From the IMG/VR virus record IMGVR_UViG_2711768042_000009: a DNA stretch of 23,314 nt; one strand, written 5' to 3'. A program made the position numbers and the translations under genes. Shown here one piece after another: positions 1 through 10,946 of the stretch. The notes beneath the pieces were generated by a model. That model worked only from the letters and a program-made list of their open reading frames with translations, did not search any database and was not told where the DNA came from. Source of the DNA: a virus. Lineage: Duplodnaviria > Heunggongvirae > Uroviricota > Caudoviricetes. The first letter of the stretch is position 1, and each line of letters opens with the position of its first letter.

Positions 1-1017
1 TCACACTTCTAGCGTTGCGAGGGGGTTGAATCTCAGAGCCGTCTCAAGATGATCGGGTGCTAAATGGGCATAGCGCATAGTCATTTTTATATCGTGATGT
101 CCGAGGATTTTTTGCAAAGCAAGGATATTTCCACCCGACATCATGAAGTGCGCCGCAAACGTATGGCGCAGAACGTGTGTCAGTTGACCGCGAGGGAGCA
201 CGATAGACGTTTTTTCCATCACGGATAAAAATTGAAAATAGCAGTCTGTAAAGAAATTGAACCCATCAAGCGCCATGATCTCTTCGTAAAGCTCTTTACT
301 GATAGGGATGCTTCTGTTTTTCTTCCCCTTCGTTCTTACAAAGGTAATTCGGTATTTGGTCACTTGCGAGCGGGTAAGATTTATTGCTTCTCGCCAGCGT
401 GCGCCTGTGCTTAGGCATATCTTGACTACCAGTGCCAGAATTGGGTCCTGACGTTTGCAATCAGCCAGCAGTTCAACAATCTGCTCATGGGTAAGCCATG
501 CCATCTCTTTTTCTGCGATGGTGAATTTTCGCATGTTCTCCAGTGGGTTCGGATACGACCATTCGCCCAGGCGGGATAGTTCGCTAAAAACACTACTTAG
601 ATAGCTTTGCTCCAGGTTAATGGTGACCGGGCTTGCTCCTTTCTTCCATTTCTCGCTGAAGTAGATCTCACCTGTCAGGCGTTTATCTCGATAGTGGGCA
701 AACATTTTAGAGGTTAGATCAGTTGCAAGGGGATTGCCCAGAGCGTCAACCATCAACAGCAGTTTGTCATAGACATGCTGCCCAGCTGTCAGAGATTTAC
801 CATGTAGTTTGAACCATAGCTCAACCACGTCTTTCAATGTCCGACGATCCACTGATTCGCCCAGCCAGGGCTTTGCTTCGGTTTCTTCCATCGTGTGACG
901 CTCAAAAGCCAGAGCTTCGCCTTTGGTGGCGAATTGTTTACGCACACGACGTCCACTACGTCCGGCGGGGTAACATTCGCAAAGCCATTTTCCTGTGGTG
1001 AGTTTTCGTACTGCCAT
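1..1017 (-). CDS. int: Phage integrase, tyrosine recombinase (P2/186 Int family)
   Basis: ORF 1..1095 (-); probable start is the internal Met (MAVRKLTTGKW...), matching the N-terminus of P2-type integrases. C-terminal catalytic region has R...HxxR...Y-like residues (LRHTFA...HHDIKMTMRYAHL). Stop codon at bases 1-3, so the gene ends at the window edge. Confidence 0.9.
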   Translation of the reverse strand: MAVRKLTTGKWLCECYPAGRSGRRVRKQFATKGEALAFERHTMEETEAKPWLGESVDRRTLKDVVELWFKLHGKSLTAGQHVYDKLLLMVDALGNPLATDLTSKMFAHYRDKRLTGEIYFSEKWKKGASPVTINLEQSYLSSVFSELSRLGEWSYPNPLENMRKFTIAEKEMAWLTHEQIVELLADCKRQDPILALVVKICLSTGARWREAINLTRSQVTKYRITFVRTKGKKNRSIPISKELYEEIMALDGFNFFTDCYFQFLSVMEKTSIVLPRGQLTHVLRHTFAAHFMMSGGNILALQKILGHHDIKMTMRYAHLAPDHLETALRFNPLATLEV

Positions 1018-1203
1018 AAAAAATGCCCTCCAGTAGAGAGCATTTTTACTGTATGTATAACCAGTGTCAATGTATGAAATCCTGCGACCATACATCTCAC
1101 TGAAGCCATAATGAAGTTAGCTATTTTTTGCTATGTGAGTATGTGACTTTTGCGGTTAGCCTGCGGCTCATTGTTATATTAGGCGCAGATATAAAAGCAA
1201 AAT

Positions 1204-1395
1204 TTATCGCGAGTTTTTAGTACAGATTTTTTTTGATTTACTAATAGTTCCATCATTGCAAACGAACTTTCCATCGGAGGTACAGTGAGAGACACCTCCC
1301 TTTTTCCCAGAACAAGGATAATTTTTAGCATAGGTAGTTAGTGGGTTTAATAACAAAGAGCATGATAAAACCACAAAAAATACCTTACCAAGCAT
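1204..1395 (-). CDS. Small hypothetical secreted protein (predicted signal peptide, Cys-rich mature part)
   Basis: 63 aa ORF with ATG start preceded by GGGAGGA on the minus strand, immediately downstream of the repressor stop. N-terminus [23 protein letters not shown] looks like a Sec signal peptide; mature part has 5 Cys. AT-rich. Confidence 0.35.
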
Positions 1396-1410
1396 AGTTT
1401 CCTCCCGGTA

Positions 1411-1980
1411 TTACCTAACGTACTTAATTGTTAAACTTATAATTTTCCCAATTATTTCAACATCTTCTATCTTGCACTCGAAGGCTCTGTTTCCACCTTC
1501 AACGAAGATTCTTCCACCGGGTAAACGAGTAATGTCGCGGATTGTTATTTCGCCATCAATACTTATTACCCATTTACCATCACGTATATCATCAAATTCT
1601 TTATCACAAATAAATTCAGAATTGTTATCTGTGATGACAAAAGGTTTTTTAAACGTAGAGGGTAGAAATCCCTTATCAAAAATATAAAAACCGTCTTCAC
1701 GCAAGGCACCATCAGATAATACATATTTAGCAACTTCCATAGTATTTGTATTACCTGAAGTTTGCTTTGAACCATTTCCAGTTGTGAGCCAATTAAGCGA
1801 GGTGCCCGTTTCAAGGGCGCACTGGATTACCCAATCTGCCGGAAAAATATCACGCATATAGCGCGTTGCCATGGTGCTCTTAGAAACACCTAAATGATCA
1901 CAGAGAGCCTGACGGGTACCGAACCCATATGCTTCAACTAAACGTTCTATGGCTTTCTTACCGCCGCTATTGAAATCCAC
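1411..1980 (-). CDS. cI: Phage 186 CI-like immunity repressor
   Basis: Translation contains an N-terminal HTH region (LVEAYGF...QALCDHLGVSKSTMATRYMR...CALETG..LNWL.TG) that I recognise as the 186 CI family. The ORF is open up to 2067; I favour the GTG at 1978-1980 preceded by GGAGGA, which gives about 189 aa. The start is uncertain. Confidence 0.75.
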   Translation of the reverse strand: MDFNSGGKKAIERLVEAYGFGTRQALCDHLGVSKSTMATRYMRDIFPADWVIQCALETGTSLNWLTTGNGSKQTSGNTNTMEVAKYVLSDGALREDGFYIFDKGFLPSTFKKPFVITDNNSEFICDKEFDDIRDGKWVISIDGEITIRDITRLPGGRIFVEGGNRAFECKIEDVEIIGKIISLTIKYVR

Positions 1981-2007: not shown

Positions 2008-2036
2008 TTGACAGATTCCAAAAGCGATCTTAAAGT
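2008..2036 (+). promoter_or_regulatory. Candidate early lytic promoter (pR-like): TTGACA-17 nt-TAAAGT in the cI/apl switch region
   Basis: TTGACA at 2008-2013 and TAAAGT at 2031-2036 with 17-nt spacer, about 90 bp upstream of the apl-like ATG and between divergent cI and apl. Confidence 0.3.
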
Positions 2037-2125: not shown

Positions 2126-2329
2126 ATGACACCTAACATTTCAATTACTCTGAATACACCACATGTCACAATCGAACGTTATAGCGAACTGACTGGCCTT
2201 TCTATTGATACGATTAACGACATGTTGGCTGATGGCCGACTACCTCGTCATCGTCTTCGTAAAGACAAAAAACGTGAAAAGGTAATGATTAACCTGGCTG
2301 CTCTGACTGTTGATGCTTTGTCTGCTTAA
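2126..2329 (+). CDS. apl: Apl/Cox-like excisionase and transcriptional regulator (small HTH protein)
   Basis: 67 aa ORF divergent from cI and first gene of the rightward operon, the position of apl in 186. Sequence [22 protein letters not shown] resembles the excisionase/Cox-type HTH. RBS AAGGAA upstream. Confidence 0.75.
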
Positions 2330-2393
2330 TAGACGTCTATTTTCGCAATAAGACGCTGAGTTCGATTTTGCGATAAGTTCGGAGTTGAAAACC

Positions 2394-2903
2394 ATGTTTG
2401 ATTACCAAGTTTCCAAACATCCACATTTTGATGAAGCCTGTCGTGCATTCGCGTTGCGCCACAACCTGGTGCAACTGGCAGAACGTGCTGGCATGAATGT
2501 GCAGATTCTGCGAAACAAGCTGAACCCAGCTCAACCTCATTTATTAACCGCACCAGAAATCTGGCTGCTTACCGATCTGACTGAAGATTCAACGCTGGTA
2601 GATGGTTTTCTGGCTCAGATTCACTGCCTGCCATGCGTACCGATTAATGAGGTAGCAAAAGAGAAACTGCCGCATTACGTCATGAGTGCAACCGCAGAGA
2701 TCGGGCGTGTTGCTGCTGGTGCGGTATCTGGTGATGTGAAAACCAGCACAGGTCGTCGTGATGCTATCAGCAGCATTAACTCTGTAACACGACTGATGGC
2801 GCTGGCTGCTGTTTCATTGCAGGCCCGTTTACAGGCTAATCCTGCGATGGCGAGTGCAGTTGATACCGTGACTGGCCTCGGTGCTTCATTCGGTTTGCTG
2901 TGA
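2394..2903 (+). CDS. cII: Phage 186 CII-like lysogeny-establishment activator
   Basis: Translation from ATG 2394 ([24 protein letters not shown]...[26 protein letters not shown]...[21 protein letters not shown]) closely matches my recollection of 186 CII (about 169 aa). RBS GGAG 9 nt upstream. Confidence 0.85.
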
Positions 2904-8567: not shown

Positions 8568-8727
8568 CGCGCGCTCGCTAAGCTTTGTAACACATTGAGT
8601 CAAGTCACTTTTTAGACGCAAATGGCTTGCAAACTTTTTCAACATTAAGGTAATTTGTTAGATATTGATGGAAAAAATTAAGACAAGAGCGATTTTCAAT
8701 TGCTTTTGGGTTGACTAGGTGCATGTT

Positions 8728-9834
8728 ATGACAAGTGGTGTCCCAGTGGTGCTTTCTGACTTTGAGTTAAAGTCGATCTTAGCCTTAACTGAACGTTTTA
8801 CGTGGCATATCGCCAGACCAATTATTGCTTCTTTAGGGCTACCTACAGGTAGAGGGCGTGAAGCAACAAACGACAAAATACTAGAAAGCCTCATTGATTT
8901 TAAAAAGAAAGATAGGCAAAAATTTGACAAAATCATTGCAAGTGTAAATGATTTAGTCTTTGGGCAGGTTGTTTATGGTGAAAAAGCAATATTTAGTTTG
9001 TCTGTAGATAGTCAAGTAATTAAATTACTTGATGATAGATATGCTCTCCAATGGAATATGATGAAGCAACCAACATCATTAGTCGAAACGATTGTTGATG
9101 ATGTTCAATTACAGCATGCTATTAAAAATCAACTTGAGCTTGTTAATTACTCTAAGCAAAATACTCAGTCTATTTTGGTATTTTCATCTATCAGGGAGCT
9201 GGTTGTAAGAGAGAAAGTCCCTCCGTCAAAGTTAGCAGCATACAAACAGTTTGATGAAATCATTGCGAAGAGAAAAGAAAAACGTCAGTGTTTTGATGTG
9301 TGTATATTAGATTCAGCTTCAAATAAAATCCATGTATTAATTGATACTAATGGTAATGTTGTTGGTGATAATATCGTTTTTGCGAAAACGAATTTTATTC
9401 GTGAGTTATATAATTGCGCAGGTTATCAATTTAATTCATCGGAAAAGGATTTTTATCCATTAATTGAGCCAATTTTCAAGCAAAATGTAATGCCATATTC
9501 AAGTTTAAGTTATAAGGTGTTCGATTTGTCATTTTTAACTTATGAGGGAACCACTCATAAGGAAAAGAAAAATGTGGCTAAGAAAGACTTGCGTGATGAT
9601 CTGTTTAATAAAGAGGGCATTAAAGCTGTAGGTAATATTGGTTTATATCGTATTGGAATTAGAGTAGATAGGAATAATCCAAAATTGCAATTGGCGGATA
9701 GTGTAGAGCTTATCATTCCAGGAACATTACGCAGACATTTAGGTGGTAGTGGGTGCTCTCCTGTCAATTATGCTATATTAAGCAAATGTATATCCAAAGA
9801 TGATTTCGAAACCCTCACAAAGCTGATATTATAA
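8728..9834 (+). CDS. Cassette gene 1: large hypothetical protein (368 aa), no recognisable motif; candidate sensor/effector of an accessory system
   Basis: ATG 8728 (in-frame GTG at 8719) with RBS AGGTG. AT-rich: I counted 30% G+C in 9001-9060 versus 47% in a terminase sample, 12301-12360. No Walker A motif seen. Stop TAA 9832-9834 is immediately followed by the next gene's RBS. Confidence 0.8.
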   Translation: MTSGVPVVLSDFELKSILALTERFTWHIARPIIASLGLPTGRGREATNDKILESLIDFKKKDRQKFDKIIASVNDLVFGQVVYGEKAIFSLSVDSQVIKLLDDRYALQWNMMKQPTSLVETIVDDVQLQHAIKNQLELVNYSKQNTQSILVFSSIRELVVREKVPPSKLAAYKQFDEIIAKRKEKRQCFDVCILDSASNKIHVLIDTNGNVVGDNIVFAKTNFIRELYNCAGYQFNSSEKDFYPLIEPIFKQNVMPYSSLSYKVFDLSFLTYEGTTHKEKKNVAKKDLRDDLFNKEGIKAVGNIGLYRIGIRVDRNNPKLQLADSVELIIPGTLRRHLGGSGCSPVNYAILSKCISKDDFETLTKLIL

Positions 9835-9846
9835 TTGGAGTCAGCA

Positions 9847-10281
9847 ATGAAGGATGGTGATATGCCCCAGATCATCAAAGAAATATGTGCAGAGCGCCCT
9901 GATATAGGGGCGCTAGCTTGCTATTTGTATGATGAAATTGGTGTGAGAGCAAAGAAATCGCCTAATATAGCTCTGAGTTATAAAGATTTATTTAGTATCG
10001 TTAATGGTTATAAAGGATGTATACAACCTGAAGCATATGAGCAGGTTGTGTACCCAGCTATACAAATTCTTTGTAGTCCAAAGGTTGAGTTTTTAAAACT
10101 CAATTATTGGTTTATTGATGATTTTCATGATCCTATTGAGCTTGAGTTAGAAGATGTTATAGAGGCTGAAATTAATCAATCTTTAGTAAACCCATTTACA
10201 GGGGAGATTATGTATGACTATAAGTCCTTCGTCTTTCCTTTTTTTACATTAGATGAATCTAAATTAAAGGATATTGTCTGA
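9847..10281 (+). CDS. Cassette gene 2: small acidic hypothetical protein (144 aa)
   Basis: ATG 9847 preceded by GGAG at 9837-9840 (in-frame TTG at 9835); AT-rich; stop TGA overlaps the start of gene 3 (TGATG), indicating translational coupling. Confidence 0.75.
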   Translation: MKDGDMPQIIKEICAERPDIGALACYLYDEIGVRAKKSPNIALSYKDLFSIVNGYKGCIQPEAYEQVVYPAIQILCSPKVEFLKLNYWFIDDFHDPIELELEDVIEAEINQSLVNPFTGEIMYDYKSFVFPFFTLDESKLKDIV

Positions 10282-10946
10282 TGTTAAAAATGTCTGCACC
10301 AATGAGTTTAGCTGAAATTGATAATGATATTTTTCTTCAGCGTATCAATGCTTCTATTACTCGCGTTAGGTTTGCTCTCCAGTCGTATGAGAACTTCAAA
10401 CAGTTTGTAAGAATTGAGCTTGATTCTGCTGTACAGGCAATTGAGGAAAATTCAAATAAATTGAATTTTGATTTAACAGAAGATCAGCTTACTTTAATTT
10501 TACTGGCAAATATAAAAAATAAAGATATGGGAATTGAAGCATATCATGAAAATAATCAACGAGGTCATTGTGATATAACAATAAAGTTGAATAGATTTAC
10601 TTGGCATGGCGAGGCCAAAAAACACACTGGTTCATATAGTTATTTATTTAAAGGGTATGCACAACTCACTGAGCGATATAGCACTGGTACTGTAGACAGT
10701 GCAAGTGGTGGGTTAATTATATATACGCGTAATAAAAAATGTAATGAAATGATGACTAAGTGGAAGGCTCATTTAGATAAATCGGCTCCAAGAATTCATG
10801 CTTGTAAGTCTATCTCGATAACTCCTTGTAAGAGAAACCCATTGGTTTTTTACAGTCAACATACTCACACTGTTAGTCAACTTAATTATGAGGTTATACA
10901 CTACCCTGTAAACCTTTATCATGAGCCTGTAGACTCAGAGCTTTGA
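10281..10946 (+). CDS. Cassette gene 3: hypothetical protein with PD-(D/E)xK-like nuclease motif (221 aa)
   Basis: ATG 10281; contains ...GIEAYHENNQRGHCDITIKLNRFTWHGEAKKH..., which fits the E / hhD / ExK signature of restriction-endonuclease-fold nucleases (D and ExK 13 residues apart). Motif-level only. AT-rich, co-oriented with genes 1-2. Confidence 0.75.
   Translation: MLKMSAPMSLAEIDNDIFLQRINASITRVRFALQSYENFKQFVRIELDSAVQAIEENSNKLNFDLTEDQLTLILLANIKNKDMGIEAYHENNQRGHCDITIKLNRFTWHGEAKKHTGSYSYLFKGYAQLTERYSTGTVDSASGGLIIYTRNKKCNEMMTKWKAHLDKSAPRIHACKSISITPCKRNPLVFYSQHTHTVSQLNYEVIHYPVNLYHEPVDSEL

Follow-up and report, generated by a model that had tools for sequence, protein, structure and literature searches.

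The short interval between the repressor and integrase genes of the virus record IMGVR_UViG_2711768042_000009 (IMG/VR) raises the question of whether it holds a gene and, if so, what the product would do in a lysogen. The record, called the window below and taken at its full length of 23,314 nucleotides (nt), is a 186-like (Peduoviridae, P2 family) Escherichia coli prophage integrated next to rcdA. An earlier note, made without database searches, had described in this interval a minus-strand open reading frame (ORF) of 63 amino acids (aa), right after the repressor stop and with a strong ribosome-binding site (RBS), as a possible moron, and had considered that it could also be spurious. The description of the ORF was borne out by the sequence, with the following elements:

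1204..1395, minus strand: ydcA-like coding sequence, 63 aa including the signal peptide (ATG start, stop codon at 1204-1206; from the ORF list)
1396..1410, minus strand: spacer of 15 nt between cI and the ydcA-like gene, with the Shine-Dalgarno (SD) site (from the sequence)
1327..1395, minus strand: signal peptide, residues 1-23 (sequence features; predicted signal peptidase I cut after TYA)
1207..1326, minus strand: mature 40-aa peptide with the YdcA domain (46-homologue alignment, motif from 229 domains, AlphaFold2 (AF2) models and codon variants)

The ORF is genuine. It codes for a protein of the YdcA family, is strongly conserved and goes far beyond what chance would give. Its product is identical to RefSeq WP_001321204.1. 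A protein-family search, which had been suggested as a check, returned the curated equivalog model NF007463 of NCBIfam (PRK10040.1-2) with 116.1 bits against a cut-off of 93 (E=4e-34, model positions 1-58 of 58), phrog_6000 among the PHROGs (E=5e-34) and the Pfam family PF27300 "YdcA", a precomputed label attached to the identical protein cluster and to its homologues. In the local Pfam-A copy no significant match was found for the ORF, only 13-bit noise; PF27300 is newer than this copy and was seen via precomputed labels only. Newer RefSeq annotations name the product 'YdcA family protein', and it shows the layout of the family, a signal peptide followed by the four-Cys motif, with every motif position present in residues 28-58. 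By these matches the ORF is no orphan and belongs to a widespread family with a chromosomal paralogue in E. coli K-12, a relationship that the earlier note had missed. Both gene and family are already catalogued in RefSeq, NCBIfam, Pfam and PHROGs without an assigned function.

The gene is common as well as conserved. The exact protein was found on more than 1000 contigs, and relatives are encoded on 523 viral contigs of IMG/VR, where the best 80 loci are near-identical copies only and thus inform on prevalence without adding diversity. The ORF DNA is present in 654 of 5426 complete E. coli genomes, at full length in 628 and always in the order cI-ORF-int, so about one complete genome in eight carries the gene in the operon that silences the prophage. 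E. coli BL21, E. coli B and ATCC 8739 have it at 100% identity. When conservation of the reading frame in related prophages was checked, the 87 full-length copies (10 alleles) contained neither frameshifts nor stops. Their codon variants amount to 17 distinct synonymous against 4 non-synonymous changes, three of the latter lying in the signal peptide; in the mature part the ratio is 14 to 1, the single replacement being K24R. Pairwise substitution counts also indicate purifying selection on the gene.

These data bear directly on the alternative of a spurious ORF in AT-rich DNA, or of a non-coding regulatory spacer in the cI-int operon. The ORF is indeed short, and the region is AT-rich, with 34% GC compared with about 50% in the flanks. 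Nevertheless, the probability left to this alternative is negligible: curated model thresholds are exceeded, the family counts 1461 clusters, no copy is disrupted, and Rfam has no family anywhere in the window. The earlier reservation about a spurious frame was therefore excluded on the basis of the profile matches (NF007463, phrog_6000), the conservation pattern with its 14:1 mature codon variants, and the conserved SD site. A structured-RNA reading of the spacer was likewise dropped for want of an Rfam match in the window.

Within the family, the window protein is assigned to a paralogous, phage-borne YdcA subfamily and is not classed as an orthologue of K-12 YdcA, since it stays below the cut-off of the K-12 equivalog model NF007462 (68 bits, 118 required) and clears that of the sister model NF007463, and since the two proteins are 57% identical and differ in genomic context. 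The name requires some care, because the genes called 'ydcA' in the gonococcal genetic island and on plasmid pS88 are named by position and are unrelated, the pS88 gene being an adenine methylase. A relation to DUF3761 (PF12587) is not claimed; it was given by one precomputed label for P0079 and was not reproduced by the local Pfam scan.

The product was described as a secreted Cys-rich peptide, and inspection of the sequence agrees with this. The signal peptide has the n-h-c layout of Sec substrates, with MLGK, a 12-residue hydrophobic core and NPLTTYA↓KN; it shows a positive n-region (K4), P at -6, small residues at -3/-1 (T-Y-A↓K) and no lipobox. A lipoprotein reading from VLSC (residues 9-12) was rejected, as Cys12 is too near the N-terminus and is not conserved. 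The mature peptide has 4 Cys in 40 aa, 9 K/R against 2 D/E, and an isoelectric point of 9.6. Its composition was thus given correctly before, but its start had been set two residues beyond the probable point of cleavage, which matters little. Across 46 aligned close homologues the signal peptide is free to vary but keeps the A-x-A-like cleavage site, and the mature YdcA domain is nearly invariant. Compared with K-12 YdcA, the window protein has a signal peptide of its own and an extra 4-residue C-terminal tail.

The position of the gene in the prophage is given by its neighbours in the lysogenic operon and in the adjoining switch region:

1..1017, minus strand: tyrosine integrase gene int, downstream in the lysogenic operon (Pfam Int_N and Phage_integrase; RefSeq)
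1018..1075, minus strand: conserved int leader, 58 nt before int (alignment of int leaders behind different cargos)
1076..1203, minus strand: 3' untranslated tail of the cargo segment, from the ydcA-like stop to the conserved int leader (boundary inferred from the int-leader alignment)
1411..1980, minus strand: 186-type CI repressor, 189 aa, immediately upstream of the ORF and co-oriented (Pfam Phage_CI_repr and Phage_CI_C; RefSeq start 1980)
2008..2036, plus strand: pR-like lytic promoter, TTGACA-17-TAAAGT, facing away from cI (promoter scan; position matches 186 pR)
2126..2329, plus strand: apl/cox-like excisionase-repressor, the first lytic gene (phrog_575, E=1e-29)
2385..2903, plus strand: CII (CP76) establishment activator (Pfam PF06892, E=3e-42)

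The pR-like promoter marks the immunity switch region, and rightward after cII come fil, genes for a Dam methylase and the replication endonuclease, and those for morphogenesis. The annotation of phage 186 gives its lysogenic operon as pL (with the CII-activated pE), cI, int and orf69, closed by a terminator; there the int start follows immediately on the cI stop, with no gene between them. Since cI abuts int in phage 186, the ORF with its 128-nt tail is an insertion into a 186-type lysogenic operon. The ORF and the C-terminal half of cI have 33-38% GC, compared with about 50% around them.

The cI gene ends with TAA at 1411-1413, and the spacer from this stop to the ORF start reads, on the coding (minus) strand, TACCGGGAGGAAACT. 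It contains a GGGAGG SD site at 1401-1406, 5 nt 5' of the ORF ATG; the site and its spacing (GGAG) are kept in E. coli, Klebsiella and Hafnia relatives despite a different spacer sequence. A promoter and terminator scan found no terminator-like hairpin between cI and the ORF, no promoter-like site in the spacer and no minus-strand terminator-like site directly 3' of the ORF. With a 15-nt spacer, a strong SD site of its own and no terminator in between, the ORF would be co-transcribed with cI and independently translated. Its expression from the repressed prophage is inferred from the position in the pL/pE operon. The proposal of a moron between integrase and repressor held as far as cargo is concerned, as shown by the 186 abutment and by the close relative ESSI2_ev129, in which the slot holds no gene. 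It did not hold for a promoter and terminator of its own, and without these the ORF is, by this layout, embedded in the cI-int operon and not a classical self-contained moron.

The placement behind a repressor is not peculiar to this prophage. The Haemophilus phages HP2 and S2 carry a secreted YdcA-like peptide gene in the same position:

2407-2589 of NC_003315, complement (2920-3102 of L001): 60-aa ydcA-like ORF of Haemophilus HP2/S2, unannotated

The gene order there is cI, the ydcA-like ORF, orf1(S) and int, and in HP2 the ydcA-like ATG overlaps the cI stop. The CI proteins of HP2 and the window are only 32% identical, whereas the mature peptides are about 73% identical. The product of orf1(S) in HP2 is a secreted OB-fold protein (Pfam tRNA_anti-like) that matches the PHROG 'superinfection exclusion Sie-like' (E=9e-9). 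A scan with each species represented by one genome gave 121 loci from alpha-, beta- and gamma-proteobacteria, and neighbours were clustered for 79 of them. A PF07022-type CI lies upstream at 8 of the 79, and an integrase is nearby at 9 (Escherichia, Buttiauxella, Yersinia, Pasteurellaceae). At another 8, all beta-proteobacterial (Iodobacter, Deefgea, Comamonas, Hydrogenophilales, Aquabacterium), the upstream gene, on the same strand, encodes an XRE-type repressor, which at two of them includes a Peptidase_S24 domain; these loci lie in P2-like prophages, as judged from Ogr/Delta and GPD matches. From these gene orders, the ydcA-like gene is repeatedly placed in the lysogeny-maintenance unit, behind repressors of two unrelated families.

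Downstream of the gene, the tail at 1076-1203 is structured as RNA, and no minus-strand terminator was found in it. The int leader that follows contains a TTGACA-like hexamer, a CACTG..CAGT inverted repeat and a 12-bp hairpin with a T-run (1018-1047), which sequesters the SD site of int directly before the int ATG; its fold has a z-score of -3.9. The promoter scan also found a promoter-like site, TTGACA-17-AAAAAT, at 1070-1042 of this leader. The leader is conserved behind four different cargos, with compensatory substitutions in the hairpin between lineages, and phage 186 lacks it. Its probable role is that of a partial terminator, an attenuator or a translational block of int that ends the cI-ydcA unit, and this suggests that in the lysogen cI and the ORF would make up the part of the operon with constitutive expression. 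Since the leader is conserved whatever lies upstream, the cargo slot is taken to span roughly 1076-1410. In other relatives the slot contains the following:

ESSI2_ev129: empty slot, 77-nt gap only
Klebsiella phage 4LV2017: 349-aa protein without assigned function
vB_EcoM-813R9, 1291-2967 of L012, plus strand: 558-aa protein matching the PD-Lambda-1 defence model (E=3e-120), annotated 'chromosome segregation ATPase'
E. coli IH5, 456-1787 of L009, minus strand, and Klebsiella, 5198-6529 of L014, plus strand: ydcA-like gene, then a KAP-family NTPase of the candidate system PDC-S20 (E=1e-171)
Hafnia: ydcA-like gene, then a 347-aa protein without assigned function

Since it holds PD-Lambda-1 or the PDC-S20 KAP NTPase in relatives, the cI-int slot of 186-like prophages behaves as a defence-gene hotspot.

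Two further observations concern the prophage itself. In BL21 it is decayed (L010 2957-3792; chromosome 844023-845468), with a truncated cII and a replication endonuclease pseudogene, while int, cI and the ydcA-like gene are intact and the last is identical to that of the window. In addition, three co-oriented ORFs of 371, 148 and 221 aa at 8719-10946 (plus strand) of the window, between the replication/DinI-like and the portal/terminase genes, lie where P2 has its old/tin cargo hotspot. Neither Pfam nor PADLOC gave a match for them, and they matched only the function-unannotated PHROGs 12777, 11490 and 9664; they may form an uncharacterised three-gene defence or cargo module.

An exhaustive HMMER search recovered 309 family clusters at 50% identity, and a profile search of the 90% clusters recovered 1461. 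The YdcA domain comprises 31 residues with four Cys and has a mean net charge of +3, its basic character being conserved, and it almost always lies directly after a signal peptide. The motif from 229 domains is C-S-G-[KS]-K-G-G-[IV]-[SA]-H-C-x3-4-[KR]-F-[VI]-C-N-D-G-[ST]-x-S-x-S-K-[KR]-x-C. Among the best 120 matches, 17 are fusions of PF27300 with PF01223 (DNA/RNA non-specific endonuclease, Endonuclease_NS). Both this fusion and that with a staphylococcal-nuclease-like domain (SNase, PF00565) were confirmed, and in the domains fused to nucleases precisely those residues are retained that the phage copies conserve. At four alpha-proteobacterial loci and in Brucella pecoris, L178 and L171 being among these cases, a secreted SNase gene adjoins the ydcA-like gene, its start overlapping the ydcA-like stop at L178. 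Other architectures include two to three tandem copies, a VasL C-terminal domain of the type VI secretion system (T6SS) and low-complexity tails. Longer members from beta- and gamma-proteobacteria and a Rhizobium plasmid (L142, L144, L147, L163-L165, L170, L172, L179-L181) carry a second C-terminal Cys-rich motif, CxCRSGxxCTGPRGGxYCxxDSGxKSYxRR, with only weak similarity to PBCV_basic_adap; this is another uncharacterised mini-domain.

Structure prediction with AF2 and the family alignment gave a small beta-hairpin domain, with a mean predicted local distance difference test (pLDDT) score of 78.6 for the full-length protein and about 90 over the domain, and of 77.7 for the mature peptide alone. 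Against PDB sequences the family profile had one match, chain AN of 7MUC/7MUD, which is Legionella Dis2 (Lpg0823), with E=2.7e-4. The sequence match is marginal, since without the signal peptide it drops to E=0.011, no better than chance-like low-density-lipoprotein (LDL) receptor repeats. The latter, LDL-receptor class A repeats found with the domain-only profile (E ~0.01), were rejected as a coincidence of cysteine pattern; they cover the second motif half only and are absent from the fold searches. In Foldseek, Dis2 was the top match for both models, with a probability of 0.97 (full-length) and 0.82 (mature-only) and about 38% identity over 38-39 columns, the next match reaching a probability of at most 0.14.

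Dis2, an outer-membrane-cap subunit in Dot/Icm, a type IV secretion system (T4SS), adjoins the outer membrane in the periplasm and contacts DotK, DotC and DotD, and it has been called Legionella-specific and without structural neighbours (PMC8486379, PMC12716638). Nevertheless, the profile and the models propose that it is probably a relative of the YdcA family, and it appears to consist of two YdcA-like (PF27300-like) lobes. The comparative pattern thus suggests a family relationship for Dis2, which, if its lobes are confirmed as YdcA-like, has relatives throughout the Proteobacteria. The window contains no T4SS genes, and the two lobes, five disulfides and Dot/Icm genome that define Dis2 are not found with the window protein. 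In the searchable literature there was no report of cI and ydcA as a conserved pair in different phage lineages, of the HP2/S2 gene, of the nuclease fusions or of the Dis2 link.

From the anatomy of the operon, the ORF would be read in the lysogen from the same leftward pL/pE transcript as cI, and this transcript would probably end or be attenuated at the conserved hairpin before int. By prediction, Sec exports the 63-aa precursor and signal peptidase I cleaves it behind TYA, after which the basic 40-aa peptide would fold in the periplasm into a small beta-hairpin domain with two disulfides. Comparative genomics points, with low confidence, to a portable module that acts outside the cytoplasm and binds a polyanionic or envelope-associated ligand. 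This ligand would most likely be nucleic acid (or another polyanion), which is ranked first because the domain occurs fused to secreted nucleases of two unrelated kinds, shares operons with a third and has conserved basic character; an outer-membrane-proximal protein complex is ranked second because of Dis2. The free domain could then shield the lysogen at the envelope from incoming DNA or superinfecting phage, in the manner of superinfection exclusion. Such a protective exclusion of superinfecting phage or other incoming DNA is the favoured role, since the free domain is repeatedly found behind phage repressors, beside defence and Sie-like cargo, and it is put forward tentatively as a real possibility. 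The wider form of this proposal is rather speculative and considered doubtful: that YdcA is a new disulfide-locked extracytoplasmic nucleic-acid-binding mini-domain related to the Dis2 lobes, co-expressed with the repressor by temperate phages of alpha-, beta- and gamma-proteobacteria, and catching incoming DNA, or the apparatus that conveys it, in the space between the membranes.

Several observations weigh against a protective role. No defence model of PADLOC-DB matches the window protein, and no known Sie, Ltp or Cor family does so in Pfam or the PHROGs, where phrog_6000 was the only match. In Moraxella and Acinetobacter phages the ydcA-like gene lies among tail genes, outside the immunity operon, and K-12, Moraxella bovoculi, Citrobacter and Atlantibacter have chromosomal, non-prophage members; because many members are chromosomal, the basic role of the family need not concern phages. 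A nuclease fusion fits a cell-envelope anchoring module equally well. In addition, the part that Dis2 plays in its secretion machine is one of contact between proteins and not of DNA binding (PMC12716638), and the reported effects of the K-12 paralogue are limited to acid induction and 3-hydroxypropionate sensitivity (PMC7642389).

The last of these points leads to the main rival, in which the gene is a lysogenic-conversion factor for host fitness that duplicates chromosomal YdcA in an envelope or stress function, such as acid tolerance, with no effect on phage or DNA. One study cites an induction of K-12 ydcA by acid, acting via YdcI, and finds that E. coli W lacking the gene is sensitised to 3-hydroxypropionate (PMC7642389). 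The existence of a 57% identical chromosomal paralogue, the many chromosomal members (Moraxella, Citrobacter, Atlantibacter) and the retention of an intact gene in the decayed BL21 prophage agree with such a role. However, it leaves unexplained the nuclease fusions as well as the placement behind two unrelated repressor families with defence or Sie-like neighbours, and the K-12 phenotype comes from a single study without a mechanism; a search of the literature on ydcA, b1419, the YdcA family and DUF3761 found no functional study. It is therefore regarded as conceivable but somewhat unlikely; should it be no more than a second copy of a housekeeping stress protein, the gene would be a moron of the ordinary kind.

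The kinship with Dis2 may instead point to an adaptor that docks on an outer-membrane-proximal lipoprotein or OmpA-like complex (T4SS, secretin, Pal/OmpA, Lpp), and that would modulate conjugation, type IV pili, competence or the route of a phage across the envelope. Dis2 is the sole PDB sequence match of the profile and the top Foldseek match for both models, its contacts next to the outer membrane are those described above (PMC8486379, PMC12716638), UniRef names the exact protein 'Conjugal transfer protein', and one family member carries the VasL (T6SS) domain; such an adaptor is judged unlikely, with the window free of T4SS genes. The Endonuclease_NS and SNase fusions, together with the adjacent or overlapping secreted SNase genes of alpha-proteobacteria (L178, L171), would also fit a free domain that binds or regulates a periplasmic or secreted nuclease (EndA, SNase-type), either recruiting it to incoming DNA or restraining it. 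There is, however, no nuclease gene in the immunity region of this prophage or beside the HP2, Klebsiella and Hafnia copies, and for a domain joined in cis to a nuclease, binding of the substrate or anchoring is a simpler role than regulation, so that a nuclease partner is improbable. With regard to the preferred reading, protective exclusion at the envelope, the repressor placement, the nuclease fusions and the probable Dis2 kinship together make the gene a testable candidate for an envelope-level immunity or DNA-handling factor.

Among known systems, Ltp of Streptococcus phage TP-J34 and Sie2009 of lactococcal P335 phages are extracytoplasmic superinfection-exclusion proteins encoded between int and the repressor. 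Proteins of this type are anchored by lipid or membrane segments, and their block of DNA injection was shown experimentally. The window gene would be analogous to them as a small, lysogen-expressed gene between repressor and integrase whose product is exported, but its product is predicted to be soluble in the periplasm, and no sequence or profile similarity to them was found. Dis2 resembles the window protein as a secreted disulfide-rich mini-domain with CxxKxGGIxxC...G+xVCN[DN]GxxS, while its two lobes and five disulfides, in a protein that is a stoichiometric component of a secretion machine, contrast with the one lobe and four Cys of the window protein. K-12 YdcA (b1419; NF007462, PF27300) has the same architecture of a signal peptide and one basic 4-Cys domain, with the motif CSGxKGG[IV]SHC... 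in both proteins and 57% identity over 53 residues, although its gene is chromosomal, between rydC and hokB and outside any prophage, and that of the window is phage-borne. The N-terminal YdcA modules of secreted Endonuclease_NS/SNase proteins (P0191, P0148, P0229) have the same conserved Lys, His, Ser and Cys residues, but they are covalently joined to a catalytic nuclease, whereas the prophage domain stands alone. Finally, the HP2/S2 ORF differs from the window gene in being unannotated and in being followed by a second secreted cargo gene, orf1(S), and it shares with the window gene the encoding of a secreted YdcA-like peptide right after cI and before int in a phage of the P2 family.

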